Below the pieces are notes generated by a model, which made no database searches, was not told the origin of the DNA, and saw only the letters and a list, made by a program, of their open reading frames with translations. The translations under genes and the position numbers were made by a program. Shown here piece after piece: positions 9,965 to 52,756 of a DNA stretch of 64,000 bases. Origin of the DNA: an uncultured Nitrospirales bacterium. GTDB taxonomy: Bacteria; Hydrogenedentota; Hydrogenedentia; Hydrogenedentales; GCA-2746185. The first letter of the stretch is position 1; each line of letters opens with the position of its first letter. The stretch spans positions 14,008 through 78,007 of the forward strand of contig CAYXRK010000001.1 in the NCBI GenBank assembly GCA_964467615.1, given 5' to 3'.

Positions 9965-10147
9965 TAGCCCGCGTCGCGCACCAGTGTTCGTAGCGAGGAA
10001 GTGGAGATGGTTGGTATATCAGGACTTGTTCGGTTCGGATCGGACGACAGCGTGTAGAAACACGTCGAGTTCGATCCGAGACGAAAAGTTCCGAGAGAAC
10101 GGCCATATCCGCTTCCGCAGTAGAATGGTGGTGAGCGATGCGGGCTA
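9965..10147. mobile_element. 183-bp MITE-like palindromic element, copy 1 (about 25-bp terminal inverted repeats TAGCCCGC...)
   Basis: About 93% identical to the reverse complement of 57221..57403. The termini are inverted repeats of each other. The internal sequence is quasi-palindromic. Lies in the hemB / AMP-ligase intergenic region. Confidence 0.7.
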
Positions 10148-10307
10148 AGTCAGCGAGGGAATGCGTCGCGCCCTGCAACCCGGCAGAACTTTCCTGGAAC
10201 GCCCGGACTCGCCGACTGCGGACACGGCGACCCCATCATTCCTGGCGAGAGCCCACCTTCACTGTTTGTTTCTCATCGACTCGCATTCGACATAAACTTC
10301 CCTCGGC

Positions 10308-11687
10308 ATGACACAGATTCTCCCCGATCCCACCAAGCGCGCTCTCCTATTCGCAGGCGGCGAATGGTCATACGCAGACCTCCATGCCCGCGTCGCCTGG
10401 GCGTCCGAACGCCTCCGCGATCGCGGCCTGCGGCCCGGTGACCGCCTCGTCATCAGTCTGCCTGCGGGAGTCGAAGCCGTCGTCTGGCTCTTGGCCGCGC
10501 TCGAGGCCCGCGCCGTGGTTTGCCCCGTCAATCCCAAACTCCCTCACCACGCCCTCGGCGATATCCTCAAGCGCCTCCGCGCGAAACATATCGTCCAGCA
10601 GGCTGACTCCGCCATCGAGGGCGAAATATCTGGCGTCGGCGTTCTCGAGTTCAGCGATGAAGAACTCGCCCGGCCAACCATCGTCGTCGCGACCTCCGGC
10701 AGCACAGCCGAACCGAAGCTCGCCGTGCTGTCGCTCCGAAATTTCCTCGCGAACGCCGACGCCTCGAACCGGAACATCCCCATCGCACCCGGCGACGCGT
10801 GGCTCCTCTCGCTGCCCCTGTTCCACATCTCCGGTCTCGGCATCGCCTTTCGGTGCACGCAGGCCCGCGCGACGATTACCGTGCCGCATCCCGATCAATC
10901 GTTGGCAAGCGCGATCACCGAATTCGGCGTAACGCATGCGTCGCTGGTTTCAACGCAACTGTACCGCCTGCTCGAATCCGAGGAGGGCCGCGCCGCCCTA
11001 TCCGGCCTCAATGCCGTGCTGCTCGGCGGCAGCGCCATCCCGGAATCGCTGATTCGGCGTGCGGTCGAGCGCGGCGTCCCAATCCACACCACCTACGGCC
11101 TCACCGAAAGCGCCGGTCAAGTCACCACCACGCCTCCGGTCTCTGACCTCGAAACGCTGCTGAGCTCGGGGCGCCCCCTCGCCGAGAGCACCATCCGCAT
11201 CGCCGCATCCGGCGAGATCGAAATCGCTGGCCCCACCCTATTCCTCGGCTACCTACAACCCAACGGCAGCATCACCCGGCCCGCCACGCCGGACGGTTGG
11301 TTTCCGACGGGCGACCTCGGCCGCTTCGACGACCACGGCCTACTCCACGTCACCGGCCGCCGCGACAATATGTTCATCAGCGGCGGCGAAAACATCCAGC
11401 CCGAAGAAATCGAACGTGCCCTCGCACAGATCGACGGCGTCGCGCAAGCGATCATCGTCCCCGTCCCAAGCGCCGAATATGGCCACCGCCCCGCCGCGTT
11501 CGTCCAATTGAGGGACCAAACCGCCCTCGAACCCGAAAGACTACGCGCGGCCTTGCGCGAATTGTTGCCAAGCTACAAACTACCCGACGCGTTTTTCGAC
11601 TGGCCGGAAGATCTCACCCGCGACGGCCTCAAACCCAGCCGTGCGGACTTCGCGAAACGGGCGCAGATGCTCGGCGGCAATCACTGA
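10308..11687 (+). CDS. AMP-dependent synthetase/ligase (MenE-like o-succinylbenzoate-CoA ligase family)
   Basis: [12 protein letters not shown]-binding motif, YGLTE and [17 protein letters not shown] motifs. About 459 aa, the size of MenE. menB is present elsewhere in the window. Confidence 0.7.
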
Positions 11688-11758
11688 AATGTAGCAACGC
11701 GCACGTTGCTCCGGGGCCCCTCTTGCGCGTATCGTCTCGCTTTTCGTCAGGACGGGTA

Positions 11759-13138
11759 ATGGCAGTTCATAGGATTAAAAAGGGCCTCGATCTGCCCATC
11801 TCGGGCGAGCCCGAGCAGGCCGTTCGACCAGGCGCGGCCGTGACGCGGGTCGCGCTTTTGGCGGACGACTACCCCGGCATGAAGCCGACGATGCTCGTCG
11901 AGCCGGGCGACGCGGTCAAGCGCGGCCAGGAGATTTTTGAAGACAAGAAGAACCCCGGCGTCGTGTACACGTCCCCGGGAGCGGGCGCCGTTCTCGCGGT
12001 GAATCGTGGTGAGAAGCGTGCGTTCCAATCCGTCGTAATCGAGCTAAGCGCCGCCGAACGCAAAGGCGCGCCCGCGGCGGACGAGTTCCAAGAATTCGAA
12101 CACTATACCGGCGGCGGCCCCAACGCGCTCGACGCCGCGCAAATCCGGGCGCTGCTGATCGAGTCGGGCCAATGGACGGCTTTCCGCACACGCCCGATGA
12201 GCAAAGTCCCCGCCGTCGATTCGACACCTGCCGCGATCTTCGTTACGGCGATGGACACCAATCCGCTCGCGCCGTCGGTCGACGTCGTGTTCAACGAAAA
12301 CAAGGACGCATTCAGCGCGGGTCTCGGGGTCGTGTCGAAGCTCACGACCGGGCCGACGTATTTGTGCCGCGCGCCCGCCGGCGCCGTCTCTTCAAATGGA
12401 CACCAGAACATCCGCGTCGAAGAGTTCAAAGGCGTGCATCCCGCAGGCAACGCTGGGACGCACATTCACATCCTCGAAGGCGCGGGCCGCTCCCACGTGG
12501 TCTGGCATATCGGCCTTCAAGACGTGATCGCCATCGGCCATTTGTTCAAGACAGGTCGCCTCTACGTGGACCGCATCATCGCGCTGGGCGGTCCGCAAGT
12601 CTCAAAGCCGCGCCTCCTGCGAACTCGCACAGGCGCATCCACTGATCAATTGGCCACCGGGGAACTGAAGGAAGGCGAGAACCGCGTCATTTCCGGCTCG
12701 GTGCTGTCCGGTCGATCCGCGCACGGCGACGTCTTCGGATACTTGGGCCGTTTTCACCAGCAAATCTCCGTCCTGCGCGAAGGCCGCGAGCGCGAGTTCC
12801 TCGGTTGGCTCACGCCGGGCGGCGATAGGTTCTCCGTCACCCGCTCGTTTCTATCGAGTCTCTTCCGCGGCCGCCGCTTCGATTTCACGACGAGCACAAT
12901 GGGCAGTCCGCGCGCGATGGTGCCGATTGGCCTCTACGAAAAAGTCATGCCGCTCGACATCTTGGCGACCTATCTCTTGCGGGCGCTCATCATGGGCGAC
13001 GTCGAGCGCGCCGAACAGTTGGGCTGCCTCGAACTCGACGAAGAAGACCTCGCGTTGTGCTCGTTCGTGTGTCCGGGCAAGACCGAGTACGGCCCCTTGT
13101 TGCGCGCCGTGCTCATGCAGATCGAGAAGGAAGGCTGA
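11759..13138 (+). CDS. nqrA: Na+-translocating NADH:quinone oxidoreductase subunit A
   Basis: [18 protein letters not shown]... N-terminus typical of NqrA. The ORF-track upstream extension is Arg-rich and spurious. First gene of the nqrABCDEF series. Confidence 0.85.
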
Positions 13139-14403
13139 TGGTCCGGTTCATCCGAAAAATTCAGGAACGGCAAGCCAAGCTCTTCGAGAAGGGCGGCCGC
13201 CTCGAGAAACTTTACCCGATCTACGAAGCGAACGACACGTTTCTCTTCACGCCCGGCCACGTGACGCACGGCGCATCGCACGTCCGCGACGGCCTCGATC
13301 TCAAACGCATGATGGTGACCGTAGTCATCGCCCTCGCGCCGTGCATGTTCATGGCGATGTACAACACCGGCTATCAAGCCTTCCTCGCCATCGAGGGCGG
13401 CGCGAGCGCGTTGAGCGACTGGCACACCGCCCTCTACAACGCGCTGGGACTAAGCTGGGCGCCGGCGAATTTCCTCGGTTGCGTCCTCTACGGCGCATTG
13501 TTCTACGTCCCCGTCTATATCGTGACCCTCGCCGCCGGCGGCTTCGTTGAGGTCGTCTTCGCCGTCGTCCGCAAGCATGAAATCAACGAAGGCTTCCTCG
13601 TCACCAGCGCGCTGTTCCCGTTGACGCTCCCGCCAACGATCCCCCTCTGGCAGGTTGCCCTCGGCATCATGTTCGGCGTCTTCTTCGCTAAGGAAATCTT
13701 CGGTGGCGTGGGCATGAATATTTTCAATCCGGCGCTCGTGGCCCGCGCGTTTTTGTTCTTCGCGTACCCGGCGCAGATTTCCGGCGATGCCGTCTGGATC
13801 GCCGCGAGAACCGCGCCGGACACGTATTCCGGCGCGACGTTGCTCGCGCGCGCCGTGTACGGCGCGCCCGTCACGCAGCCGGACGGCACGATAGTGCAGA
13901 GCGGCGTGCAAGCGTTGCACGAGAGCGGCATTACGTGGATGCAGGCCTTCCTCGGGCTTCTTCCCGGCTCGATGGGCGAAACGTCCAAACTGTTTTGCTT
14001 GTTCGGAGCGTTTGTACTTATTTATACCGGTATCGGTTCCTGGCGCACCATGGCGGGCGGCGTCGCCGGCAGCTTCATGATGGTGATTACATTTAACCTT
14101 ATCGGTTCCTCGACAAATCCGTTACTCGACGTCCCCATTCACTGGCATTGGGTCCTCGGCAGCTTCGCCTTTGCCATGGTCTTCATGGCCACCGATCCCG
14201 TCTCCAGCGCCTTCACTGCGCCGGGCCAACTCATCTACGGCTTCGCCATCGGCATGTTCGGTAGTCTCATTCGCGTCATCAATCCCGCCTATCCCGAAGG
14301 TTGGATGCTCGCCATTTTGTTCATGAATATGTTCGCGCCCTTGATTGACTGGTTCTTCAAGCAGCGCAACATCAAGCGCAGGCTCGCGCGCCATGCAGCG
14401 TAA
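13138..14403 (+). CDS. nqrB: Na+-NQR subunit B
   Basis: Polytopic membrane protein. ATGA overlap with nqrA. Conserved NqrB/RnfD-like sequence. Confidence 0.85.
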   Translation: MVRFIRKIQERQAKLFEKGGRLEKLYPIYEANDTFLFTPGHVTHGASHVRDGLDLKRMMVTVVIALAPCMFMAMYNTGYQAFLAIEGGASALSDWHTALYNALGLSWAPANFLGCVLYGALFYVPVYIVTLAAGGFVEVVFAVVRKHEINEGFLVTSALFPLTLPPTIPLWQVALGIMFGVFFAKEIFGGVGMNIFNPALVARAFLFFAYPAQISGDAVWIAARTAPDTYSGATLLARAVYGAPVTQPDGTIVQSGVQALHESGITWMQAFLGLLPGSMGETSKLFCLFGAFVLIYTGIGSWRTMAGGVAGSFMMVITFNLIGSSTNPLLDVPIHWHWVLGSFAFAMVFMATDPVSSAFTAPGQLIYGFAIGMFGSLIRVINPAYPEGWMLAILFMNMFAPLIDWFFKQRNIKRRLARHAA

Positions 14404-15184
14404 CAGTTGGCAGTACATCATCGGTTTCGCCGGCCTCATCTGCGTCTTCTGCTCCCTTCTCGTATCGACCGCCGTCGTCGCGCTCAAGGAACGCCAAAGC
14501 GCGAACGCGCTCCTCGACAAACAAAAGAAAGTATTGTGGGTCGCCGGCCTCATCGACGCTGACGCCGTGCCGGATCCTGACGAAGTGCACCGCTTATTCG
14601 AGGGGCGTGTCCACGCGCACGTCGTCAGCCTGCAAACGGGCGAAGAAGCGCCGGAGTCCGAGATTGATCCGGCCACGTACGATCAGCAGAAGGCCCTTTC
14701 CGATCCCAACGCCAGCCGCGAGGCCCCGGCGAACCCGGCCCAGGTCAAGCGGCTTCCGAACTACGCAACAATGTACCAGGTGCTGGACGAATCCGGCCGC
14801 GTCGAACTACTCATTCTCCCGGTCTACGGTAAGGGGCTTTGGTCCACCATGTGGGGCTTTGTCGCGTTGAACCGGGACACGACGACCGTCAGGGGCCTCA
14901 TCTTCTACGCTCATGGCGAGACACCCGGACTCGGCGGCGAAATCGAGAACCCTCTCTGGATCGCCAAGTGGCCGGGGCGTAAGATATTCGACGAGCAATG
15001 GCGGCCAGCGATCCGGGTCATCAAGGGGCCCGCGAAGGGCGCCGAGGAAGCGCCGCACGACGTGGATGGTCTGTCCGGCGCGACGATAACGAGCAACGGC
15101 GTGACGTTTCTGCTGCGGTTTTGGCTCGGCGAAAACGGGTTCGGGCCGTACCTGGCGAAGTTTCGGGAATCCGAAGGGAGTTAG
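14393..15184 (+). CDS. nqrC: Na+-NQR subunit C (FMN-binding)
   Basis: Single N-terminal TM helix. LSGATITS flavin-attachment motif. Confidence 0.85.
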   Translation: MQRNSWQYIIGFAGLICVFCSLLVSTAVVALKERQSANALLDKQKKVLWVAGLIDADAVPDPDEVHRLFEGRVHAHVVSLQTGEEAPESEIDPATYDQQKALSDPNASREAPANPAQVKRLPNYATMYQVLDESGRVELLILPVYGKGLWSTMWGFVALNRDTTTVRGLIFYAHGETPGLGGEIENPLWIAKWPGRKIFDEQWRPAIRVIKGPAKGAEEAPHDVDGLSGATITSNGVTFLLRFWLGENGFGPYLAKFRESEGS

Positions 15185-15187
15185 CCC

Positions 15188-15823
15188 ATGGCGATACTCG
15201 GTAAGGCAGAACGCGCGGTCCTGTTCGATCCGCTGTTCAACAACAACCCCATCGGGCTCCAGGTGATCGGAATTTGTTCCGCGCTCGCCGTCACGACCCA
15301 GATGACCACCGCGGTCATCATGGCGCTTTCGGTGACCGTCGTTACGGGGTTCTCCAACCTTTCGGTCAGCTTGGTGCGGAACTTCACGCCTTCGAGTATC
15401 CGCATCATCGTCCAAATGACACTCATCGCCTCGCTCGTCATCGTCGTGGACCAACTCATCAAGGCCTACGCCTTCGACACGAGCAAGCGCCTCTCCGTTT
15501 TCGTCGGCCTCATCATCACCAACTGCATCGTGATGGGCCGCGCCGAGGCCTTCGCAATGGCCAATGCTCCCTGGCGCAGTTTCCTCGACGGCATCGGCAA
15601 CGGCCTGGGCTACAGCCTCGTCCTGGTTTCCTGCGGATTTGTCCGTGAGATCACCGGCTCGGGCAAGTTGTTCGGCCAACCGATCTTCGTCACGGTGAAT
15701 GACGGCGGGTGGTACGTTCCGAACGGTCTGATGCTGCTCTCGCCCAGCGCGTTCTTCCTCATCGGTTGCCTCATCTGGGCGCTCAGGGTATGGAAGCCCG
15801 AACAAATCGAGAAGGACGAGTGA
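15188..15823 (+). CDS. nqrD: Na+-NQR subunit D
   Basis: NqrD/RnfA-like membrane protein. GGGAG Shine-Dalgarno. Confidence 0.85.
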
Positions 15824-15826
15824 GCC

Positions 15827-16453
15827 ATGTTCGAACATTACCTGGGACTGTTTATTAAGAGCGTGTTCATCGAGAACATGGCGCTCGCGTTCTTCCTCGG
15901 CATGTGCACGTTCCTCGCGTGCTCGAAAAAGATCGAGACAGCGCTGGGCCTGAGCGCGGCGGTCGTTTTCGTCCAGACCATCACCGTGCCCATCAACAAC
16001 CTCATCTACAACGCGGTGCTGCGCGAAGGCGCGCTCGCGTGGGTGCCCGGCGCTGGCGGCTACTTGAAGCAATTCGACCTGAGTTTCCTCGGCCTGCTCA
16101 GCTACATCGGGAGCATCGCCGCCGTCGTCCAGGTCCTCGAAATGTTTCTGGACAAATACGTGCCCAAGCTCTACGCGGCCCTCGGAATATTTCTGCCGCT
16201 CATCACCGTGAACTGCGCCATCCTCGCCGGTTCCTTGTTCATGGTCGAGCGCGACTACACCTTCGGCGAGAGCGTCGTCTACGGCGTCGGGAGCGGCGGC
16301 GGCTGGGCGCTTGCCATTATCGCGATGGCCGCGGTGCGCGATCGCATGGCCTACAGCAATGTTCCCGCCAGCTTGCGCGGGCTCGGCATGTCGTTCATCC
16401 TCGCCGGGTTGATGGCCATCGGGTTTATGAGTTTCGGCGGAATACAACTCTAG
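15827..16453 (+). CDS. nqrE: Na+-NQR subunit E
   Basis: NqrE/RnfA-like membrane protein immediately after nqrD. Confidence 0.85.
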
Positions 16454-16479
16454 TCGTCGTCATTGGGGGCGGTAACGTC

Positions 16480-17721
16480 ATGGGCGTCAGTATGCTGATC
16501 ACCATCGGGTTCAGCATGTTCATGTTCACATTCATGATCCTGGCCTTCGTCGCCGTGCTCATCGTCGCCAAGAACAAGCTTGTGACCGTCGGCAACGTGC
16601 GGATAGTCGTCAACGGCGATACCGAGCACGCCCTCAATGTCGCCGGCGGCGGGACCCTCCTCGGCGCGCTGGCCGAACAAAAGATTTTCATCCCCTCGGC
16701 CTGCGGCGGCAAAGGCAGTTGCGGCGTGTGCAAGGTGAGGGTCCTCGAAGGCGGCGGCGCATTTCTCCCCACCGAAAAAAACTTCATCAGCCGCGGCCTG
16801 GAACGCGAAGGCGTCCGCCTCTCCTGCCAAATCAAAGTCAAGCAAGACTTGCGCATCGTCGTGCCGGACGAGGTCTTCCACGTCCGCAAGTGGAAGTGCA
16901 AAGTCCGCTCGAACCACAACGTCGCCACCTTCATCAAGGAACTCGTCCTCGAACTCCCCGCGGGCGAGGAAGTCCCCTTTCGCGCGGGCGGGTACATTCA
17001 GATTGAGTGCTCGCCGCACCACGTCGATTTCAAGGACTTCGACATCGAACCCGAATACCGCGGCGACTGGGACAAATTTAACCTCTGGCGATACGCCTCC
17101 GACTGCAAGGAGAGCGTCTTCCGCGCCTTCTCGATGGCCAACTATCCGGATGAAAAGGGCGTCATCCTGCTCAACATCCGCATCGCCACGCCGCCACCCA
17201 AAGTCGCCGACGCGCCCCCAGGCATCATTTCGTCCTACACGTTCGGGCTTAAGCCGGGCGATGAAGTTACCATTTCCGGTCCCTACGGCGAGTTCTTCGC
17301 AAGAGACACCGGGAACGAGATGATTTTCGTCGGCGGCGGCGCGGGCATGGCGCCCATGCGTTCCCACATCTTCGACCAATTCCGCCGCCTGCACACCGGC
17401 CGCAAAGTTACGTTCTGGTATGGCGCGCGCAGTCTGCGCGAAGCGTTCTATATCGAGGATTTCAACGCCATCGCCGCCGAAAACAAGAACTTCACCTGGA
17501 ACTTGGCCCTGTCCGAGCCGCTCCCGGAAGACAACTGGACCGGCTACACCGGCTTCATCCACCAAGTCCTGTTCGATAACTATCTCAAGGGCCATCCCGC
17601 GCCCGAAGACTGCGAGTACTACATCTGCGGTCCGCCGATGATGAACACCGCCGTCATCAACATGCTCCACGGCCTTGGCGTCGAGGATGAAAACATCCTC
17701 TTCGACGACTTCGGCGGCTAA
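16480..17721 (+). CDS. nqrF: Na+-NQR subunit F (2Fe-2S ferredoxin + FAD/NADH-binding)
   Basis: N-terminal TM helix, [12 protein letters not shown] 2Fe-2S motif, and a ferredoxin-NADP reductase-type FAD/NAD domain (GGGAGMAPM). Confidence 0.88.
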
Positions 17722-21600: not shown

Positions 21601-22293
21601 GTGTCTAGCGGGGAGTCTAAGGTCATGGCGGAAGGGTTGGCCGCGCGGCGCACGGCTGGGGGTGCGGTGTTGCGCGTCCTGGAACGGGACCAGCGTCTGT
21701 TCCGGGAATTGAAGGATGAAGATTTGATGCTGGAACACGCGGGCGGGTCGGAACCGGCGTATGAAGAGCTGGTCCGGCGCCACCAGAAGGGCGTGCTCAA
21801 TTATATGTACCGGATGGTGCAGAACCGCCACGTGGCGGAGGAACTGACGCAGGACGTTTTCCTGGCGTTGGTGCGGAACGCGGTGCGGTATCAGCCGACG
21901 GCGAAGTTTACGACGTATTTGTACGCGATTGCCTCGAATATGGTCTCGAAGGAATGGTTGCGCAGGAAGCGTCGCCCGAAGGTGTTCAGCCTTTTCGGCT
22001 GGGCGAAGGAGGGCGACGAACCGGGCTTCAATCCCGTCGAGCATGCGGCGGATGCACGGGCCGATACGTTGGCGGCGTTTCGGCGCGGGGAAGTCTCCGA
22101 GGCGGTGAACGAGGCGTTGCAGCATCTGCCGGAACATCAGCGCGAAGCGTTCGTGTTGCGGCGTTTTGAGGACATGTCGTACGAAGATATCGCGCAAGTG
22201 ACGCAAGTGCCGGTTGGGACGGCGAAATCGCGGGTAGTACGGGCTGAGCGGGCGCTGCGGCCGTTGCTAGAAGCGTTCCGGGAATACGTGTAG
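21601..22293 (+). CDS. ECF (sigma-24-type) RNA polymerase sigma factor
   Basis: Sigma-70 region 2 (YRMVQNRHVAEELTQDVFL) and region 4 (MSYEDIAQVTQVPVGTAKSRV). TATAAT at 21534-21539 upstream. Confidence 0.85.
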   Translation: MSSGESKVMAEGLAARRTAGGAVLRVLERDQRLFRELKDEDLMLEHAGGSEPAYEELVRRHQKGVLNYMYRMVQNRHVAEELTQDVFLALVRNAVRYQPTAKFTTYLYAIASNMVSKEWLRRKRRPKVFSLFGWAKEGDEPGFNPVEHAADARADTLAAFRRGEVSEAVNEALQHLPEHQREAFVLRRFEDMSYEDIAQVTQVPVGTAKSRVVRAERALRPLLEAFREYV

Positions 22294-22299
22294 GCGGGT

Positions 22300-22977
22300 A
22301 TGACAAAAGAACATCCAAGCGAGGCGAGACTGTTTGAGTACGCCGAGGCGCTGCTCGATGGCGGGCCGTTGCCGAAGGCGTTGGGTGGGCACGTTGCGGC
22401 GTGTTCGGTGTGCCGCGCACGCGTCGAGTCGGTCCGTGCGTCGTTGGCCTACGCCGGGAACTCGCGAGAGCTCGAACCTTCGCGCGAGATGACCGCGCGC
22501 ATTCTCTTGACCGCAAGGAACGAGCGGCGCAGGAACGATGCGCGGGCAATGCGGCAGGTAGTATTGCGGCGGGCGTCGAAGGTCGCCGGCGTCGCCGCGT
22601 TTGCGATCGTTGCGACGTTGACGTACCGCTCGGTGATGAGCGCGCCGGCATTGGCACAGGCGCCGGCAATTGTAGAGCAGACCGCGGCAAGCACCGTTGA
22701 CTCAACGGTGTTCGCGGATCGGGTGGCGACGTTAAGCGCTTCGAGCGCGGAGGAGACGGTGCTGAGCGGGGCGGTGATGGCGTCATATTGGCAGCCGCGG
22801 CGGCCTTTGGAAAAGGCGCAGCTTCGCGCGGTAAAGGAACTCGAGGACGATATTTCGGAGGCGCTCGAGGCGGTGCAGGAGAACCCGGGGCTTGCTCGTG
22901 CGGCGAGCGTGGTGTCGAGCGCTCGGCAGCGGCGCGCGGACACGATGAAAGCGTTGTTCGTCGCGAGAAGTCTATAA
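22300..22977 (+). CDS. anti-sigma factor (zinc-finger HxxxCxxC, single TM helix)
   Basis: HVAACSVC motif near the N-terminus. Central TM helix (VAGVAAFAIVATLTY). Directly follows the ECF sigma gene. Confidence 0.7.
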   Translation: MTKEHPSEARLFEYAEALLDGGPLPKALGGHVAACSVCRARVESVRASLAYAGNSRELEPSREMTARILLTARNERRRNDARAMRQVVLRRASKVAGVAAFAIVATLTYRSVMSAPALAQAPAIVEQTAASTVDSTVFADRVATLSASSAEETVLSGAVMASYWQPRRPLEKAQLRAVKELEDDISEALEAVQENPGLARAASVVSSARQRRADTMKALFVARSL

Positions 22978-22984
22978 TCGCTGC

Positions 22985-25009
22985 ATGAGACAACCGTGCG
23001 GGTCGAGGGCCAAGGCGGCGGTCTTGGCCTGTTTTGTTTGTTGGGGGTCGCTTGCGCAAGACGCGCCGCCTGCTGATCCGCCGCCCGTGCCCACGGAAGC
23101 GCCGGCGCAAGAGCCTGCGCCACAGCCTTCGGCTGAAACACCCGCCGCAGTACCGCCGGCGGATATACCGGCGGAAACGCCTGCGCCGGAGGAACTATCG
23201 GCGGCGGCGCCTGCACCAGCGCCGGTGGCGCCACTAGAGTCCCTTCCCTCGCCGGAAGAAACGCCTGCGCCCGCGGCGGTGGATTTCACAGGTCTGCTCA
23301 CGTTTACGCGCACTTGGGAGCAGCAGTTTCCCGCGGCGGAACCACCGCGCATCGACGTGTCCCACAAGCATGGGCCGTTGCTGGTTCGGGTATGGGACCA
23401 GCCGCTCGTGCGCGCCACGGCGACCATGACGGTTGGCGCTCTGGATCAGGCCGTGGCTCAGCAATTCGCTGATGCAATTATCGTTCAAGCCGAGCAGGAG
23501 GGCCCCCGGCTTCTGTTCGTTTCGACCTATCCGAGTGGGGACGGTACGCCCGCAATCGGGGCATACACGATGGAACTGTCGTTGGACGTTCCGAGAGCGT
23601 CGTCGCTGTCGGTGCGAAATGAATTCGGTGACACGAACGTGGTTGGGATAAACGGGCAATTGACGCTCAACTCCGTATTCGGCGCGGTCGAATTGCGCAA
23701 CATTGGCGGTGTAGCGCGGGTGTTTGCGAAGGGCGAGTTCCCGTTCGTGGCGCGCGGACTGTTGCAAGGGGGGACGTTTGTGCTGCGCGGATCCGCCGCA
23801 GTGTTTTCCGAGTACTCGGACGCGCTCGTAGTCCGGAGCACGTCGGGCGCCGTCGAGGTGCGTAACCCTGGGGCTGCGAGCGAGTTGGACGTCACGGCGG
23901 ATTTCTGCCCGGTGCACGTCTACGTGCCCGAGGGCGCAGCGCCGAGCCTGTACTTCGCCGCGCAGGAGGGCGCGATTGAATCCGAAATCGAACTCGAGCG
24001 GGACGCATGGGGCACGAATCTTCTGGCGCGTAAGTTGATCGACACGGCGACGCAGCGCATCACGGTGCATTCGTCGTTTGAAAAGATTTACGTCCATCAG
24101 GAAAGCGCGCAACCTGCCCCCGCGCCCGTGGTCAACGAAAGCGCGCAGAGCGTGCAGGAGCCCATCGGGCCGGTGGAGCTTCCGATCGCGGCGGACGGCG
24201 TGTTGCTGGTGCAGTCCGCCATCGGCGACGTCCGGGTCCAGGCCGGAGACGTTGCCACGGTAACGATTACGGCCGCGAAGCACGCGCGGCTCGGTGACAT
24301 CGCGCAAGCCCCGGCCGCGCTGGCGCTGTTGGGCTTCGAAACGGGCCAGGCCGCGGACGGCGCGCTGACTGTAACGACCAGTGTTGGCGAAGGCATGGCG
24401 CAGTTGACGGCGAGCGACTACCGGATCGATTTGCAGATCGTGTGTCCGCGGACGATAACGGTGCGCCTGAAATGCGAAGAGGGGCACACGAACGTTTCGG
24501 GTACCGCGGGCGCCGTCGTGGTCGAGCAGGGGCGCGGACTCGTCGAGATCACGGACACGAAGGGAAGCCTGGACTTGTCGAGCCGGCTTGGCGACGTTAC
24601 CGTGGTCAATTCGGCTGGCCCCGTCGCCCTACGCGCTACCGCCGGTACGGTTTCACTGCGGGAGGTATTGGCCTCCGCTGAAGTGCGGTGCGCTGCGGGC
24701 ACTATCGTCGTGGACACACCCAGGGCGGGTCTGTTGGCCGCCGCGCAGAAGGGCGACGTGCGCGTGATCGCGGCAGCAGGTATCTTCGGCGATTTCGACA
24801 TCAAGACCGAGGACGGCAGCATAAACGTTCTCGCTCCGGAAGTCCCCAATGCCAACTTTCACTTGAGCACGTACGGCGGCAGCGTGCACAGCCGCCTTCC
24901 GATATCCGGCACCCAGGTCGGGGACGTGCAGTCGTTTCAAACCGAGCCAATCAGCGATGCGCCCCGCGTGTTCCTCGAAGCCAAGCGCGGAAATATCTAC
25001 CTCGACTGA
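22985..25009 (+). CDS. DUF4097 (putative adhesin) domain protein with signal peptide and Pro/Ala-rich linker
   Basis: Repetitive beta-rich C-terminal half typical of DUF4097. Third member of the sigma / anti-sigma / DUF4097 triad. Confidence 0.6.
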   Translation: MRQPCGSRAKAAVLACFVCWGSLAQDAPPADPPPVPTEAPAQEPAPQPSAETPAAVPPADIPAETPAPEELSAAAPAPAPVAPLESLPSPEETPAPAAVDFTGLLTFTRTWEQQFPAAEPPRIDVSHKHGPLLVRVWDQPLVRATATMTVGALDQAVAQQFADAIIVQAEQEGPRLLFVSTYPSGDGTPAIGAYTMELSLDVPRASSLSVRNEFGDTNVVGINGQLTLNSVFGAVELRNIGGVARVFAKGEFPFVARGLLQGGTFVLRGSAAVFSEYSDALVVRSTSGAVEVRNPGAASELDVTADFCPVHVYVPEGAAPSLYFAAQEGAIESEIELERDAWGTNLLARKLIDTATQRITVHSSFEKIYVHQESAQPAPAPVVNESAQSVQEPIGPVELPIAADGVLLVQSAIGDVRVQAGDVATVTITAAKHARLGDIAQAPAALALLGFETGQAADGALTVTTSVGEGMAQLTASDYRIDLQIVCPRTITVRLKCEEGHTNVSGTAGAVVVEQGRGLVEITDTKGSLDLSSRLGDVTVVNSAGPVALRATAGTVSLREVLASAEVRCAAGTIVVDTPRAGLLAAAQKGDVRVIAAAGIFGDFDIKTEDGSINVLAPEVPNANFHLSTYGGSVHSRLPISGTQVGDVQSFQTEPISDAPRVFLEAKRGNIYLD

Positions 25010-25081
25010 CGTAGAATTGGCGTCGTTGTTTGTGTGACGCCCCTCGGTTTGTCGAGCCGATCATTGAAGGGAGCGAGTACG

Positions 25082-25324
25082 ATGCTACACATGGCGCGCC
25101 CGGCCCATCCGGGACAATTCGTGAGGATGGAAGTGATCGGACCGCTCGGCCTCACCGTTACCGAAGCCGCTAAAGTCCTTGGCGTGACGCAGCCCGCGCT
25201 TTCCGCTCTGCTCAACGCGCGCGCGGCGATTTCTCCGGAAATGGCGCTGAGGATAGAACTGGCCTTCGGCCCCCAATGGATACGCTTCTCCGCATGCAGG
25301 CGGCTTACTCGGCGGCGAAAGTAA
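25082..25324 (+). CDS. higA: HigA-family antitoxin (XRE-type HTH), probably frameshifted; the intact reading would extend to about 25410
   Basis: HPGQFVRMEVIGPLGLTVTEAAKVLGVTQPALSALLNARAAISPEMALRIELAFG matches the HigA consensus. The conserved C-terminal FG..xxFWLNLQxAYDL is recovered only in the +1 frame after the C5 run at 25270-25274 (…FGPPMDTLLRMQAAYSAAKV…). No higB partner nearby. Confidence 0.55.
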   Translation: MLHMARPAHPGQFVRMEVIGPLGLTVTEAAKVLGVTQPALSALLNARAAISPEMALRIELAFGPQWIRFSACRRLTRRRK

Positions 25325-25488
25325 GGAACGACTCCAAACATATCAAGGTTAAGCGATACGTCGCGCGGGCCGGCAGCCGAGGGCGGCCGCCCCCCACTCG
25401 CTCGGCGTAACGCGCGACGCTATGCTTTGTTGGTAGGAAGAATTCAGCGTATGATGTTTAGCGGACATGTGCCTCGGAGGATCGGACC

Positions 25489-26064
25489 ATGAGATTGTCG
25501 GCGATGCTTATTGCATTCGTGTTGTTCACCGCGCCGGTAACGTCGTTCGCGCAAGGTGCCCCCATGCCGGAAGAGAACACCGGGCCGAAAGTCGGCGCGA
25601 AGGCGCCGGAGTTCACACTCAAGGACCAGAACGGCGCGGACCGAGTGCTCGCCGACTTCCTCAAGGAAGGCAAGGTCGCGCTGGTGTTCTACCGATCGGC
25701 GGACTGGTGACCGTACTGCAAAAAGCAACTGGTCGAGTTGCAACAACGTTCGGAAGAGTTGAAGGCCGCTGGAATCGTCGTCGTTGGAATAAGCTACGAT
25801 TCGGTCGACGTATTGAAAAAATTCTCGGATGCGAACAAAATTTCGCTTCCACTTTTGTCAGATGAAGGCAGCAAGACGATTGATGCGTTCGGCATCCGTA
25901 ACAAGGAGATGGCCGGGAAGGGCAAGTTCGACGGCATCCCGTATCCGGGCACGTACGTGTTGGACGCAAAAGGCGTCGTGCGGGCGAAGTTGTTCATCGA
26001 GAAGTATCAGGAGCGGCATCCGGTGGACGCGTTAATCGAGGCCGCGAAGACGATAGGCGAATAA
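25489..26064 (+). CDS. BCP/PrxQ-type peroxiredoxin selenoprotein (Sec encoded by in-frame UGA at 25708-25710; UxxC redox motif), secreted
   Basis: ORFs 25489..25710 and 25738..26064 are in the same frame, separated only by TGA. The joined product …VALVFYRSADW-U-PYCKKQLVELQQRSEELKAAGIVVVGISYDSVDVLKKFSDANKISLPLLSDEG… aligns continuously to BCP-type peroxiredoxins, with Sec replacing the Thr of TxxC. SECIS-like hairpin follows. N-terminal signal peptide. GGAGG Shine-Dalgarno. Confidence 0.75.
25725..25741 (+). promoter_or_regulatory. bacterial SECIS-like hairpin (GCAACU-GGUCG-AGUUGC) 14 nt downstream of the UGA
   Basis: Perfect 6-bp stem with apical loop GGUCG. The loop starts 20 nt after the UGA. 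Comparable to the E. coli fdhF minimal SECIS (apical GGUC loop about 18 nt after UGA). Confidence 0.6.
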
Positions 26065-26104
26065 TAGTCCAGCGTTGCTGGTTACAAAACGGGAGGTACG
26101 GGAA

Positions 26105-27451
26105 ATGAACGCAAGTTGGAGAATAGTGGTAGGGCTGGCGGCGTGCGCGCCGTTGGCGTTGGCCGACGCCACGCCCTCGCAGCAGGTAACGTGGGCGAAG
26201 GACGTGATGCCGATCGTCCAGGAGAATTGCCAGGGGTGCCATCGCCCCGGGCAGATCGGGCCATTCTCGCTGATGAGCTTCGACGAGGCGAGGCCTTGGG
26301 CGAAATCAATCAAGCAGAAGGTGTCGGCACGGCAGATGCCGCCGTACTTCGCGGATCCGGCGTCGCTGCCGATGAAGGGCGACTTGAACTTGTCGCAAGG
26401 CGAGATGGACACGTTCGCCGCGTGGGTGGATCAGGGCGCCAAGTTAGGCAACGAAGCGGACCTACCCGCGCCGAGGAAGTTCGAGACCTTCGAGGGCGGC
26501 TGGCAACTGAAAAAGCCGGACGTGGTCATGCAGATGCCCGAACCGTTTGGTGTCGGCGCGGGCCAGGACGATTTGTATCAGTGCTTCAGCGTGCCGTTCG
26601 GACTGGACCAGGACGTATGGCTAAAGGGCGTCGAATTCAAGCCGGACAACACGAAGGTCGTCCACCATTTCATCCTGTTTGAGGACAAGTCTGGCAAGTT
26701 CAAGGAATACGACGCCGAGACACCCGAACCAGGCTGCGAATGCGCCGACATGGAAAAGGTGTTGCAGGGCACGAGCATGATCAAGATGTGGGCCCCTGCG
26801 AACGTGCAGCCGTTTCCGCCGGTTGGCGTGGCGCAGCGCGTCCTGAAGGGCAGCAACCTGATCCTTCAAGTTCACTACCACAACGTCACCGGCGAGGACC
26901 AATCAGACCAATCGAGTTTCGCGTTTCACTTGGCGCAGCCGGGCGAAACGATCATGAAGGAAATCCGGGGCCAGTTGGTCGTGCAGCCGAACTTGAACAT
27001 CAAGGCCGGCGATCCCGCGTCCAAATTTCAGGCGACGTACAAGACGCCGAAGGACATCACGCTATTTTCGTCGGGCGTACACATGCACTACCGCGGCAAG
27101 GACATGGGCATGTGGGCGAAGCGTCCCGGAGATACAGACGAAACGACGATCGTCTGGGTGCCGCGTTACGATTTCAACTGGCAGCTTACGTATGAGTTCA
27201 CGCAGCCGTGGAAAGCGCCCGCGGGGACCGAGTTCACGATGCGGTGCACGTTCGATAACTCAGCGAACAACCCATTCAACCCAGACCCAACGGTGGACGT
27301 GCATTGGGGCCTGTACAGCACGCAGGAGATGGCGTTCTCCGGATATTCGTACACACTTGATGAAGAGGCATTGAACATCACGCCCGTGATGCCTGCGCCC
27401 GAAGTGCTCTCACGATTCTCCGGATCCACGAAGGCCGTATCAGGCGACTAA
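26105..27451 (+). CDS. c-type cytochrome domain fused to a PHM/DBH-like copper type II monooxygenase domain, secreted
   Basis: Signal peptide. CQGCH haem-binding motif. HHFILF (CuH-like) and HMHYRGKDM...M (CuM-like H-x-H ... M) motifs as in the Cu2_monooxygen family. GGGAGG Shine-Dalgarno. 40 nt downstream of the Sec-peroxiredoxin gene. Confidence 0.55.
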   Translation: MNASWRIVVGLAACAPLALADATPSQQVTWAKDVMPIVQENCQGCHRPGQIGPFSLMSFDEARPWAKSIKQKVSARQMPPYFADPASLPMKGDLNLSQGEMDTFAAWVDQGAKLGNEADLPAPRKFETFEGGWQLKKPDVVMQMPEPFGVGAGQDDLYQCFSVPFGLDQDVWLKGVEFKPDNTKVVHHFILFEDKSGKFKEYDAETPEPGCECADMEKVLQGTSMIKMWAPANVQPFPPVGVAQRVLKGSNLILQVHYHNVTGEDQSDQSSFAFHLAQPGETIMKEIRGQLVVQPNLNIKAGDPASKFQATYKTPKDITLFSSGVHMHYRGKDMGMWAKRPGDTDETTIVWVPRYDFNWQLTYEFTQPWKAPAGTEFTMRCTFDNSANNPFNPDPTVDVHWGLYSTQEMAFSGYSYTLDEEALNITPVMPAPEVLSRFSGSTKAVSGD

Positions 27452-49464: not shown

Positions 49465-50484
49465 CTACGATTCTGCAACTGAATAATCAGGCAACTGCAA
49501 GCGCACCAAGTCAATTAGCGTTGCGTTTCCATGCGAATGATCCAGCGGCCTTAAAAGCAAAAAATCATCTGCCGTTACCACGAATTCATCTGCTGGCGTC
49601 TTTGTCATTCCGTTGAAATACGACATAAAGAAACTAAAAAATGATTGTCGTTTCCGCTTCGCAATTCTTTCTATGAATTCGGCATAGCGGATGATCGCTT
49701 CGTCCTTTACCTGAAATGTGTAATCCACGTAGGTTTCCAATACTGACAAGTCATGATCAGTCCAATGAACACCATTGCCTAGTAACGCGAAACTGCGAAA
49801 CGGACGTTTGCTCGCGCTGCCAGAAGACGCCAACAAATTTTCGTTGAATTGAAGATCAAAATCGACCGCGACTAATGACGTTTGCTTTGCTTTCTCAATT
49901 GTTTGAATTCCGCTTCCTAACTTATCTGAACTTGAAAATCGTTGCGCTCCAACACGCTTACTTTCTAGGGATGCAAGAGGAGAAGCACTGTTGAGAAGAG
50001 CAATGCGGCAATACTGCTCTTTGACGGCAATCAGTTTTACAAAAAGCGTACTAGCCTTGCCACCCCATACGACGATAACAGGGAACGCCTGTTCAACGGC
50101 GATGGTTTTTATCGTTTCACCTTCACCGGTCAAGACACCAATTCGCGCCTGCTGCATCAATGGATCGTGCCGTTTCAAAGTGATTTGAAGCGATGGATTG
50201 CCGATACGAAGGTTGTGACCCTTTTGGATATGGGCAACTAACAACGGAGCAAATAGGACGAACTCGACTTTATGAGTGGCTCCAGAACGTCCGCGAAGTT
50301 TCGGCTCATAGATGAGACAATCGCGAATTTTCAAATCAGTAAGTAAAAACTTCTTTATAATGATTTCCTGAACTACACCAATCTTGCGACCTACAGTTCG
50401 GCCGTTCTTTATATTGGTATGCGTCTCAAAATAATAGAAAATCTCCGAAATTCGAGGATCGTGAGGATCGCGTGGATTCGCCAC
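49465..50484 (-). CDS. putative Type II restriction endonuclease (partner of the adjacent MTase)
   Basis: Low-GC (about 43%) ORF immediately downstream of, and overlapping, the N6A MTase gene. Start taken at GTG with GGAG Shine-Dalgarno; the ORF extends to a TTG at 50565. No recognised family. Confidence 0.45.
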   Translation of the reverse strand: MANPRDPHDPRISEIFYYFETHTNIKNGRTVGRKIGVVQEIIIKKFLLTDLKIRDCLIYEPKLRGRSGATHKVEFVLFAPLLVAHIQKGHNLRIGNPSLQITLKRHDPLMQQARIGVLTGEGETIKTIAVEQAFPVIVVWGGKASTLFVKLIAVKEQYCRIALLNSASPLASLESKRVGAQRFSSSDKLGSGIQTIEKAKQTSLVAVDFDLQFNENLLASSGSASKRPFRSFALLGNGVHWTDHDLSVLETYVDYTFQVKDEAIIRYAEFIERIAKRKRQSFFSFFMSYFNGMTKTPADEFVVTADDFLLLRPLDHSHGNATLIDLVRLQLPDYSVAES

Positions 50485-50537
50485 TATTTTCTCCGGCGAA
50501 CGAATCTGACTATCAGTTCCTCTATGATGCTCATATA

Positions 50538-51164
50538 TTACGTTTGTTGCTGCGTCGGGCGCCAAACGGAACTGTGATCAAATAGAAGAGGTTGTTCTTG
50601 CTTCTTTGCCCGTTCGTACTTCGCCATACGTGCCGAACGTAAATCTATCGCAGCGCCGTATTTGGAAAAGACCTCTAAGAACTTCGCTACTTCTGGTCCC
50701 CAATAGACCATTGCACACGACATAGGGGCACCCTTGCCACCGGTCCTTCCGTTTACGAGAAATTTTAATCGGGTGTCGTACAAGAATGCGACCGCTGCAG
50801 TATTGTTCCAGATGAAACGCTTCCAGTGACTTGTATTCGTTGCGACGGGTACTAATGCGATGACTTCCGAATTATGTGTTTGATGACTTTCGGCGCAACG
50901 TCTCAACCAGTCGTAGATTGTCGTGCCTCTCGTCCGATCTGCTCCGTAAGGTGGATTGACGAATATCGTCGGGTAATCCCAACTCGCACTGAGGCCATCC
51001 GTCTTTGGTAAGTGGTACTCAATCGCGGCATCAACGACTGAGTATTTATTTGAGCAAGGGTCTAACGAAATTCTGCCTCCGAATACTTGGCGAACCGCTA
51101 CCACATACTCAAGCGGCGTCCCCCAGTGATGGCTTACTGCGTTGACCGTTCTTCCTGCTGTCAT
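50538..51164 (-). CDS. DNA N6-adenine methyltransferase (Dam-like, phage-type)
   Basis: DPCS (motif I-like) and TIFVNPPYG (motif IV NPPY) signatures. GGAGGGGAAA Shine-Dalgarno before the ATG (MTAGRTV). Low GC. Confidence 0.75.
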   Translation of the reverse strand: MTAGRTVNAVSHHWGTPLEYVVAVRQVFGGRISLDPCSNKYSVVDAAIEYHLPKTDGLSASWDYPTIFVNPPYGADRTRGTTIYDWLRRCAESHQTHNSEVIALVPVATNTSHWKRFIWNNTAAVAFLYDTRLKFLVNGRTGGKGAPMSCAMVYWGPEVAKFLEVFSKYGAAIDLRSARMAKYERAKKQEQPLLFDHSSVWRPTQQQT

Positions 51165-51519
51165 TTTCCCCTCCATGTTCCCAGAACGCGTGGGCTTTAA
51201 TACAGCAATGTTCACTTTGCCTCGTGGTACGCGAGCCGCTTCCGCGCGCTGCCTTTGATCGCTTCAACGGCATGCTTGCCGTCCGTCACTTCCCGCTGGT
51301 TCCACTGGAACCCATTGCCGAAGCGTGATATGCGATCCGTGCATGACCGTCCCTACGGCGACGGTGAACTACTTGCAGCATACATTACACTGAATAAGAC
51401 CGTCTCGCACCTTCAAGGACTTGACGATAATTCGCGTGCTTTTTGTGCCGTGGCAATGCGTCACGAAAACTCGAAGTCTCGCCGAGTTCGAAGACCCGGC
51501 CACGATTTCGATCTCGACT

Positions 51520-52116
51520 TTACGTCGCCGAAGCGTCGAGCAATGGATCGACCGTCATGACCAACTCTTCGAGCGTTACTTCTCCGAGCCAGGACGTTAT
51601 AAGTTTGCCCGCTTTGTCGAAAAGAAACGTCTCGGGCAACGCGCCGCTCACTTCCGCCCCCACCGCCGCGCTGAGTTGGTCGGGCATGACGCCTTCCATG
51701 ACGAGCACGTTGTATAGGACGTCGTATTTGTCGATAAAAGGGACCACTTTGTCCGCCAGCGTCGCGGGGTCATCGGCCGAAATGCTGACGAACCGTACGC
51801 CCCTGTCCTTGTATTCGCTGTAGAAGGTGTTGAGGGCCGGCGTTTCCTTTACGCACGGCGGGCACCACGTCGCCCAGAAATTAACAACGGCGACACCCCC
51901 GGCCTTGGCGTCCTTAATCGTCTTAGCGATCAGTTCCGCGTTAGCGATGCTGGCGCCGCCCTTCGGCGCGACCGCGATAGCTAGAGCCGGAGCGGCAACC
52001 GACATCGCTCCATTTGTCGGTCCCGACTCCGCGGGTCCGCTGCATCCGTAGCCGAAGAAGGTGACTAGAAGAGCGGCGGCGCGGACGGTTCCGCGCCGCG
52101 AGTTAATAAGGTTCAT
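51520..52116 (-). CDS. TlpA/ResA-like thiol:disulfide oxidoreductase (WCPPC), lipoprotein
   Basis: FWATWCPPC thioredoxin motif. Signal peptide with a Cys near the cleavage site. Confidence 0.8.
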   Translation of the reverse strand: MNLINSRRGTVRAAALLVTFFGYGCSGPAESGPTNGAMSVAAPALAIAVAPKGGASIANAELIAKTIKDAKAGGVAVVNFWATWCPPCVKETPALNTFYSEYKDRGVRFVSISADDPATLADKVVPFIDKYDVLYNVLVMEGVMPDQLSAAVGAEVSGALPETFLFDKAGKLITSWLGEVTLEELVMTVDPLLDASAT

Positions 52117-52147: not shown

Positions 52148-52756
52148 CTATTTCGAGGCCCGCTTGATCGTGCAGCCCCAGGCGCTCACTTCGGGTGTCG
52201 AAACCGCTTTGCCTCCAAGCAGATTGTCGATTGCCGCCGCCGCATAGGGTGTGTCGCCGTCTTTCTCGGGCACCGTGCGGTTGTCGAACGCGCCGTGAAA
52301 CGCGAGCTTGCCTTCCGCGTCAACGATGTAAAACTCCGGCGTGCGCGAAGCGCCCACCGCGTCCGCGAAAGTGTTGTTTACGTCCTTGAGAATCGGGTAT
52401 TCGAACCCGCCCTTCTCGACGTACGCGGAGACATCTTCGACGGAGTTTCCAGCGTCCGAATCCACTCCGAAAATTAGCGCCTTGCCGCCGTAGGCGTCCG
52501 CCAACTTGTCGATTCCGGGGTCCGCGCCGCGCGACCAGGGGCAATTTTTCGACACGAACGCCAGCGCCACCACCTTGCCCTTATAGTCGCTGAGCTTGTG
52601 CGTCTTGCCTGTCAGGTCCTTCATGTCGAAGTCCGGCATCGATTCACCAATAGCGGGCGCCTTGCCCGCGTAGGCCGGGGAGCCGTACATCAACGCCACG
52701 GCGAAGGCCACCATCGCCGCCAATACCACACCAACAATCGCCTTTTTCATACGCAC
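52148..52756 (-). CDS. redoxin/thioredoxin-fold family protein (single-Cys KNCPWS), secreted
   Basis: Signal peptide. Thioredoxin-like fold pattern with one active-site Cys. Confidence 0.6.
   Translation of the reverse strand: MRMKKAIVGVVLAAMVAFAVALMYGSPAYAGKAPAIGESMPDFDMKDLTGKTHKLSDYKGKVVALAFVSKNCPWSRGADPGIDKLADAYGGKALIFGVDSDAGNSVEDVSAYVEKGGFEYPILKDVNNTFADAVGASRTPEFYIVDAEGKLAFHGAFDNRTVPEKDGDTPYAAAAIDNLLGGKAVSTPEVSAWGCTIKRASK

Follow-up and report, generated by a model that had tools for sequence, protein, structure and literature searches.

A probable selenocysteine codon and a SECIS-type hairpin inside a mis-annotated gene for a predicted exported peroxiredoxin-fold protein in a Hydrogenedentota bacterium

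The DNA considered here is a 64-kb stretch, called the window throughout, from a metagenome-assembled genome (MAG) of the Hydrogenedentota, and the gene in question lies at positions 25489-26064 of its plus strand. Read from the ATG at 25489 to the TAA at 26062-26064, this segment forms one reading frame of 191 codons with a sole internal stop, a TGA at 25708-25710, and the peptide around it runs FYRSADW-stop-PYCKKQLVELQ. The initial annotation had described two open reading frames (ORFs) in the same frame parted only by this TGA, and the frame is indeed so arranged. It had also foreseen that automated annotation would split the gene, which is what the databases hold. The ORF listing gives one piece at 25489-25710 (73 aa) and another at 25738-26064 (108 aa, from an internal TTG start). 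The GenBank and European Nucleotide Archive gene calls likewise divide the gene into a 73-aa and a 101- or 108-aa protein; in GenBank the N-terminal 73 residues are “hypothetical protein AAB353_10625” (MEK7794977.1) and the C-terminal part is a separate protein of 101 aa. Comparison with relatives shows that the adjacent ORFs are one mis-annotated gene for a predicted exported redox protein of the peroxiredoxin (Prx) fold, and the in-frame UGA very probably encodes selenocysteine (Sec), as residue 74. The coordinates of this gene, its elements and its neighbors are collected in Table 1.

The domain content of the product spans the stop. In a Pfam search made with the internal stop changed to Cys, the AhpC-TSA domain (PF00578) matched residues 35-166 with an E-value of 3.6e-35 (121 bits against a cut-off of 26), and a Redoxin match (4.3e-21) also ran across position 74. 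Full-length, contiguous homologues with Cys at this position are 50-64% identical across 83-99% of the length. The domain match and the pairing of Sec with Cys uphold the earlier proposal of a single gene with Sec in the UxxC motif of a Prx-like protein.

The same in-frame codon recurs across a wide range of relatives. A search of about 5.8 billion proteins returned 2043 homologues, and the best 120 of these were examined; most have 180-240 residues and share 44-64% identity with the query across 75-100% of its length. At the site that reads W-UGA-P-Y-C in the window, 101 of the best 120 are full-length proteins with W-C-x-[FY]-C, and 16 have W-W-P-[FY]-C. Also among the best 120 is a 108-aa fragment, 97% identical (P0002), that comes from a contig of Hainich groundwater (L001). 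The DNA of this contig is identical to the window over the TGA and the hairpin described below, and the gene as a whole differs by just two substitutions, both toward its 3' end. Since the independent assembly carries the same TGA, the codon is not a sequencing or assembly error.

At the DNA level, a degenerate-pattern scan yielded 80 loci from metagenome contigs and 80 from a set with one genome per species. The homologous codon is TGA in 76 of the 80 metagenome loci (TGC or TGT in the other 4) and in 79 of the 80 genome loci (TGC in 1). Together this makes 155 TGA codons and 5 Cys codons in 160 loci, with identities to the window protein of 42-62%. The TGA loci belong to Planctomycetota (Isosphaeraceae, Gemmataceae), Verrucomicrobiota, Hydrogenedentota, Sumerlaeota, and a Blastocatellia MAG, and the coding sequence is conserved on either side of the codon, the tblastn alignments covering residues about 1-189. 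The UGA column aligns with the conserved redox-active Cys of the homologues, a Sec/Cys pair represented by 101 proteins and 5 DNA loci. Alignment with homologues had been proposed earlier as a check. It places Sec on a conserved residue, which in the closest homologues is the Cys of W-C-P-[FY]-C and not Thr. The near-fixation of Sec in this clade is notable beyond the routine.

This pattern bears on the simplest alternative, namely that the TGA is a real stop and that the locus is a pseudogene or a pair of small genes, one for a 73-aa secreted peptide and one for a 108-aa fragment begun at TTG 25738. Gene callers do split the locus, and the machinery for Sec insertion was not found in the 64-kb window. 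However, UGA is kept at the catalytic Cys position across phyla, and neither a gene boundary nor a nonsense mutation would persist in this way. The same TGA is present in 155 of the 160 loci, which span five phyla or more, and the sequence is conserved on both sides of it. Taken singly, neither half makes up a complete domain, the stop sits exactly on the catalytic Cys of a CxxC motif, and a covarying hairpin follows it. A real stop is therefore very improbable.

A second possibility is that the UGA is read through without selenium, either because the codon is reassigned (code 4 or 25, as Trp or Gly) or because the hairpin promotes near-cognate decoding as Trp or Cys. In its favor are the 16 database homologues deposited with Trp at the site, and UGA reassignment in some Verrucomicrobiota has been described (PMC13462651). 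In the window, however, TGA is the ordinary terminator of 15 of the 41 Pfam-supported genes, so the code of this organism has not been reassigned. The only one of the “WW” proteins checked in DNA (P0021, locus L166) has TGA at the codon and gives no translation under table 11, which marks it as a gene-calling artefact. True homologues have Cys and never Gly at the site, no genuine TGG was found at the Sec codon among the 160 loci, and selD, selA and selB adjoin an orthologue in two genomes. The Trp residues of the “WW” proteins probably arose where code-4 gene models were applied to short contigs, an artefact that hides selenoproteins, and selenium-free read-through at this gene is quite unlikely. 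The 16 Trp-type entries (P0004, P0012, P0014-17, P0021, P0024, P0025, P0027, P0028, P0031, P0032, P0037, P0042, and P0085) are mostly metagenome gene calls of the Joint Genome Institute from contigs of about 1-2 kb.

Downstream of the UGA lies a candidate selenocysteine insertion sequence (SECIS). The initial annotation had reported a perfect 6-bp hairpin with a GGUCG loop 14 nt past the UGA, and the element is exactly as stated: it begins 14 nt after the codon, and its stem is perfect, with no bulge. It lies within the codons for Gln-Leu-Val-Glu-Leu-Gln, except that the stem opens with the third base of the Lys codon before them. Folded alone, it reaches -8.0 kcal/mol (z = -3.3), and none of 200 shuffles folds as well.

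The stronger support is comparative. In a gap-free alignment of 70 distinct Sec-type sequences, with positions counted from the U of the UGA, 96.1% of the cells in the helix +17 to +23 with +27 to +33 can pair. Compensatory changes occur in four of the seven pairs (GC/CG 60:8; GC/AU 54:11, with 5 GU; CG/UA 58:12, without mismatch; CG/GC 38:16). Shuffles give a covariation score of 0.126 +/- 0.013, and none of 500 reaches the observed 0.301. Sliding the 3' arm by 1-3 nt lowers pairing to 9-43%, and RNAalifold independently returns the same helix. Most family members have a 7-bp stem and a 3-nt GUN loop, the loop G and U (+24 and +25) being invariant in 70 of 71 Sec-type sequences. The loop codon (GUN) specifies Val in 15 of the 16 “WW” proteins, which are of the Sec type, versus 36% of the Cys forms. 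The residue after this Val is Glu or Gln in the Sec forms; in 40% of the Cys forms it is Asp, which would break a pair.

Could the hairpin lack any function as RNA and be a mere by-product of chance self-complementarity in the codons for the conserved peptide Q-L-V-E/Q-L-Q? The stem does lie wholly inside the coding sequence of a conserved helix, and the closest Cys-type loci (L101, L162-L165) keep it. Against this stands a resampling of synonymous codons, in which each peptide was kept and codons were drawn from the genes' own usage for 152 unique sequences. The six outer pairs are observed in 149 of the 152 (98%), compared to a resampling mean of 25 (about 16%) and a maximum of 39. The pair +21/+29, at synonymous sites, covaries perfectly (CG in 62 sequences, UA in 16, no mismatch), and the outermost pair switches from GC to CG through coupled amino-acid changes, from Thr/Lys...Gln to Ala...Glu. 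More distant Cys homologues (L041, L054, L063) have lost the stem; distant forms lose the Val and use the Asp that breaks it. The stem-keeping Cys loci fit recent Sec-to-Cys swaps, and their stem suggests a “fossil” SECIS left by such a replacement. A by-product is thus highly unlikely, and the comparative data show that the hairpin is a selected RNA structure. The Cys-type (TGC or TGT) relatives with a stem are L101:10208 (Gemmataceae bacterium CJuql4), L162, L163-L164, and L165, some of which lack the loop G-U. A terminator-like site on the minus strand at 25741-25725 was rejected as a false positive, being the SECIS stem read backwards beside a plus-strand run of five A.

Several results weigh against the reading of the UGA as Sec, or against parts of the wider interpretation, and are best taken together. 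In contexts of 43-66 nt the energy does not set the fold apart from shuffles (z = +0.39 and -0.84), and the minimum-free-energy structure there picks a competing helix that involves the UGA region. Single-sequence folding, a check proposed earlier, is thus not decisive, and the case rests on comparative evidence. Rfam gave no gathering-score match in the window relevant to the hairpin, and at E <= 10 on 25400-26100 it gave no plus-strand match over 25700-25760. Pfam scans of about 50 ORFs of the window did not find selA, selB, or selD, and ARAGORN found no tRNA, hence no tRNA-Sec, in the 64 kb. The signal peptide was judged by eye from the sequence, the function is a prediction from motifs, and no neighboring partner is universally conserved across the family, which leaves little functional guidance.

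The likeness to the fdhF SECIS of Escherichia coli, which had been called close, stands in part. Both elements lie in the coding sequence just 3' of the UGA and have a short upper stem and a small apical loop, and the loop here begins GGUC and has the conserved G-U. The distance is also similar, since the fdhF loop starts about 18 nt after the UGA, versus 20 nt here, and bases G23 and U24 of fdhF (1-based) correspond to the G and U at +24 and +25. Unlike fdhF, the window hairpin lacks a bulged U, and it starts 14 nt past the UGA rather than 11 nt, differences that count with the points above.

Good indirect support comes from genes of the Sec machinery that lie next to orthologues in related genomes. 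E. coli SelD and SelA sequences served as tblastn probes only, and the matches were then verified with NCBIfam models. On a Pedosphaera sp. chromosome (L153), the orthologue at 10001-10546 has selD, selA, and selB 2-8 kb upstream. The selD fusion scores 265 bits on TIGR00476 against a cut-off of 125, selA 460 against 268, and selB 316 against 242. In a member of the Limisphaerales (L145), selA and selB upstream of the orthologue also pass the NCBIfam cut-offs. Both of these genomes, in which the orthologue is linked to selDAB, are verrucomicrobial relatives. The 20-kb loci L153 and L145 yielded no tRNA-Sec, nor did ARAGORN find one in the 80 related genome loci. Complete sets of Sec-insertion genes have been reported for Gemmata obscuriglobus and Isosphaera pallida (PMC4807772), and the Gemmata and Isosphaera families carry the Sec form among the loci scanned here.

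The class of the protein is less simple than its domain. Its structural stand-in is an AlphaFold 2 (AF2) model of a 64%-identical Cys homologue, P0005, with a predicted local distance difference test score of 87.5. The top Foldseek matches of this model are AhpE, Bcp4, and BcpB (E about 1e-13, template-modeling [TM] score 0.85-0.87, root-mean-square deviation about 2 A [1.9]). ResA-type oxidoreductases follow slightly behind, at a TM score of about 0.8. In alignments with sequences from the Protein Data Bank, Cys77 falls on the peroxidatic Cys of BCP-type structures and Sec74 on the Thr/Ser of PxxxT/SxxC. This agrees with the initial annotation, which had placed Sec on the Thr of the BCP active-site TxxC. 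The label “BCP/PrxQ-type” that went with it does not hold. The Prx motif Pro is replaced by Ser70 (alignment to 2cx3), which is invariant in the clade, and the catalytic Prx Arg by Pro153 (alignments to 2cx3 and 3drn), invariant in the Sec clade. The replacements S70, Sec74, and P153 are conserved as such in the Sec clade, and at the Sec site the nearest homologues carry Cys instead of Thr.

No NCBIfam model reaches its own cut-off for the window protein. The scores are 79.9 bits against 140 for BCP, 49.5 against 260 for PrxQ (NF006960 and NF053650 being the BCP/PrxQ test models), 32.9 against 270 for PrxU, 48.9 against 120 for the SelL-related model (NF040769), 51.4 against 170 for ResA (NF002854), 29 against 123 for DsbE (TIGR00385), and 26.9 against 230 for TlpA. 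Lacking the Pro, Thr, and Arg of Prx, and scoring so far short of the BCP cut-off, the protein is not a strict BCP/PrxQ member. Its motifs and modeled relative describe a peroxiredoxin fold with a thioredoxin-type W-U-P-x-C center, that is, a Prx-like UxxC protein.

Comparison with known proteins supports this intermediate position. With BCP/PrxQ proteins (Aeropyrum pernix PrxQ, 2cx3; Sulfolobus Bcp1, 3drn; Mycobacterium tuberculosis AhpE, 1xvw) it shares the fold, as seen in the modeled homologue, but it differs from them at the three replaced residues and in its predicted export. With ResA, TlpA, and DsbE it shares membership in the thioredoxin superfamily, predicted export, the W-C-x-x-C type of motif, and a Pro segment before the central beta-strand (here I-P-Y-P-G-T-Y-V-L-D). 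It differs from these in scoring far below the family cut-offs, in a fold nearer to Prx, and in lacking a cytochrome-maturation context. PrxU of Eubacterium acidaminophilum is also a selenoprotein of the AhpC/TSA superfamily. In PrxU, however, Sec replaces the peroxidatic Cys (TxxU), whereas here it lies three residues upstream and that Cys is kept.

The combination of a pfam00578 domain with UxxC defines the selenoprotein family called Prx-like thiol:disulfide oxidoreductase (PMC1088965, PMC2398784, PMC9312934), and this UxxC group is classed apart from the TxxU peroxiredoxin selenoproteins (PMC1088965). The UxxC/UxxU family goes back to Kryukov and Gladyshev (2004) and Zhang et al. (2005, 2008) and includes “Prx-like 1” of the Global Ocean Sampling (GOS) survey. 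The initial annotation had called it known but rare. It is known, but it is not rare in metagenomes, as 225 “Prx-like 1” UxxC sequences were counted in GOS (PMC2398784). The window protein has the pfam00578 domain and Sec in a thioredoxin-like UxxC (neither TxxU nor UGC). The gene is a new member of this family, known since 2004-2005, placed there by the domain and motif definition. As in the rest of the family, Cys homologues are more numerous overall, a small G-containing SECIS loop lies directly past the UGA, and the function is a predicted one (PMC1088965, PMC2398784, PMC9312934). Unlike the marine and deltaproteobacterial members, the present clade comes from soil and groundwater Hydrogenedentota, Planctomycetota, and Verrucomicrobiota; it also differs in its predicted signal peptide and in being almost fixed for Sec.

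What the protein does can be outlined from these parts, and Sec insertion at this gene, export, substrate, and electron donor are what we infer. As the ribosome reaches the UGA at 25708, SelB carrying guanosine triphosphate (GTP) and Sec-tRNASec would bind the hairpin, with its 6-7-bp stem and invariant loop G-U, and would deliver Sec in place of termination. The N terminus has the form of a signal peptide, which predicts a periplasmic location; the homologues all have comparable hydrophobic N termini, and the 30 N-terminal residues of the P0005 model are of low confidence. Export by the general secretory pathway would leave a mature protein of roughly 170 residues in the periplasm. There, Sec74, at the N-terminal position of the W-U-P-Y-C motif, would be the attacking nucleophile and would form a reversible selenenylsulfide with Cys77, so that the mature protein could act as a thiol:disulfide oxidoreductase or reductant. 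Re-reduction would probably be by a system of the DsbD/CcdA type; one Cys homologue (L162) adjoins a DsbD gene. Our confidence in this oxidoreductase chemistry is lower than in the selenoprotein assignment.

The main competitor for the chemistry, as opposed to the decoding, is that the protein is a selenium-dependent peroxidase, in which Sec74 or Cys77 attacks the peroxide and its partner resolves the resulting selenenic or sulfenic acid, as in PrxU or GPx. Sec is intrinsically reactive toward peroxides. The fold of the modeled homologue is closest to the 1-Cys/BCP peroxiredoxins, the best NCBIfam and structure-database sequence matches are BCP-type thiol peroxidases, Cys77 stands at the peroxidatic position, and the presence of extracytoplasmic function (ECF) sigma and anti-sigma genes in the vicinity points to a stress regulon. 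However, all the residues that activate a peroxiredoxin are replaced, and by conserved substitutes, the scores fall far under the BCP, PrxQ, and PrxU cut-offs, and W-C/U-P-x-C followed by an I-P-x-P-G-T segment resembles oxidoreductases of the thioredoxin/ResA type. The literature also keeps the UxxC group separate from TxxU peroxiredoxins (PMC1088965). A peroxidase is accordingly possible, though unlikely, and a thiol:disulfide oxidoreductase is the preferred reading.

The gene is flanked on one side by regulators and on the other by a putative copper enzyme (Table 1). The downstream gene, separated by 40 nt and probably co-transcribed with the selenoprotein gene, encodes a protein with N and C domains like those of PHM/DBH, both weak matches, and no NCBIfam model matches it. 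A homologue of it adjoins the Sec gene in only three other species-level loci: L107 (Hydrogenedentota) and L141 and L160 (Planctomycetales). Any functional link to the selenoprotein is weak. ECF sigma genes recur near the homologue in about 12 loci, and NrsF-type anti-sigma genes in about 8; as context, these neighbors weakly hint at an envelope-stress or redox role. The near-identical Hainich contig also has the small regulator that directly precedes the selenoprotein gene, and no toxin partner was seen.

Table 1. Coordinates of the selenoprotein gene, its elements, and other features, in positions of the window.
Feature	Position	Strand	Remarks
ECF sigma factor	21601-22293	+	Pfam
Putative anti-sigma factor	22300-22977	+	Pfam
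DUF4097 protein	22985-25009	+	Pfam
HTH_3 (Xre/HigA-like) small regulator	25034-25324	+	Pfam
Shine-Dalgarno-like GGAGGA	25476-25481	+	7 nt upstream of ATG; read from the sequence
Putative complete selenoprotein coding sequence	25489-26064	+	191 codons including Sec74; Prx fold (AhpC/TSA); W-U-P-Y-C motif
Predicted Sec-type signal peptide (MRLSAMLIAFVLFTAPVTSFA followed by QG)	25489-25551	+	n-region, hydrophobic core, SFA cleavage motif
Putative redox motif Trp-Sec-Pro-Tyr-Cys (residues 73-77)	25705-25719	+	UGA (Sec74) 25708-25710; Cys77 25717-25719
SECIS-type hairpin GCAACU-GGUCG-AGUUGC	25725-25741	+	6-bp stem; loop GGUCG 25731-25735
Downstream gene, secreted Cu2-monooxygenase-like protein	26105-27451	+	N-terminal CQGCH haem-c motif (residue 42); Pfam Cu2_monoox_C 1e-5, Cu2_monooxygen 1.4e-4
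Tandem AhpC-TSA/Redoxin genes	51520-52116 and 52148-52756	-	

In the relatives, a different neighbor stands out. Of about 160 loci, 28 have a second, apparently unannotated UxxC selenoprotein gene beside the Prx-like one (L153:8546-9931 and L145:8512-9942; also L158, L022, L082, L110, L089, and others, though not in the window). Its product, of about 460 aa, has a thioredoxin/ResA-like domain with FASW-U-[AV]GC, then TPR, then a conserved C-terminal domain, and the in-frame stop falls in one column in 29 of 29 tblastn alignments. Its TGA in L153 is followed, 16 nt on, by a 7-bp hairpin, ACGUGCC-CGGGU-GGCACGU. The match to the NCBIfam model “WAxxUGC_long” is weak, 26-30 bits against a cut-off of 300. 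In what may be called a “selenium island” (L153:1857-7672 and L145:1-6733), a fusion of an NAD/FAD-oxidoreductase with SelD lies, along with selA and selB, directly upstream of the two UxxC selenoprotein genes.

With this second gene adjoining the first in those loci, and both standing in an island with selD, selA, and selB in two Verrucomicrobiota, a larger proposal can be entertained. The clade in Hydrogenedentota, Planctomycetota, and Verrucomicrobiota might be a distinct secreted selenoprotein subfamily with Sec nearly fixed, and perhaps one half of a periplasmic relay that runs on selenium-based redox chemistry. This is put forward tentatively, as a speculation with the odds against it.

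Other parts of the window hold features of their own. In the tandem pair of AhpC-TSA/Redoxin genes, one product has W-C-P-P-C and a lipoprotein-like N terminus (ResA/TlpA-like), and the other has C-P-W-S only, with a single Cys. At 49465-51215 on the minus strand is a stretch with low GC content at third codon positions (0.43-0.51 versus about 0.75-0.8 elsewhere) that includes a Dam-like N6-adenine methyltransferase gene and a 366-aa ORF without a Pfam match, and a restriction-modification island of foreign origin is a possible reading. At the right edge of the window (63141-63998, minus strand) lies a truncated gene for an MmeI-type target recognition and C-terminal domain. A complete operon for the Na+-translocating NADH:quinone oxidoreductase, nqrA-F, occupies 11297-17721 on the plus strand. 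Together with sulfatases, a DUF1800 gene, and an FG-GAP/GH123 protein elsewhere in the window, it fits a lifestyle like that of the Planctomycetes-Verrucomicrobia-Chlamydiae group for this MAG.

No new mechanism is revealed by this gene, as both the family and the UxxC motif have been described before. Its interest lies elsewhere. The hairpin offers a clean case of a putative SECIS that lies within the codons of a conserved peptide, Q-L-V-E/Q-L-Q, and constrains it, so that one segment would carry two codes. A selenoprotein with a predicted signal peptide is likewise a point of biological interest, as are the links to selDAB and to the second UxxC gene in relatives. The GenBank entry for the gene is wrong, and public MAGs and metagenomes hold hundreds of orthologues that are likewise split or given Trp by code-4 gene models. 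Correcting them would alter estimates of selenium use for the Planctomycetota, Verrucomicrobiota, and Hydrogenedentota of soil and groundwater. If the relay were real, the part that selenium plays in the envelope of abundant aerobic bacteria of these environments would seem to have been underrated.

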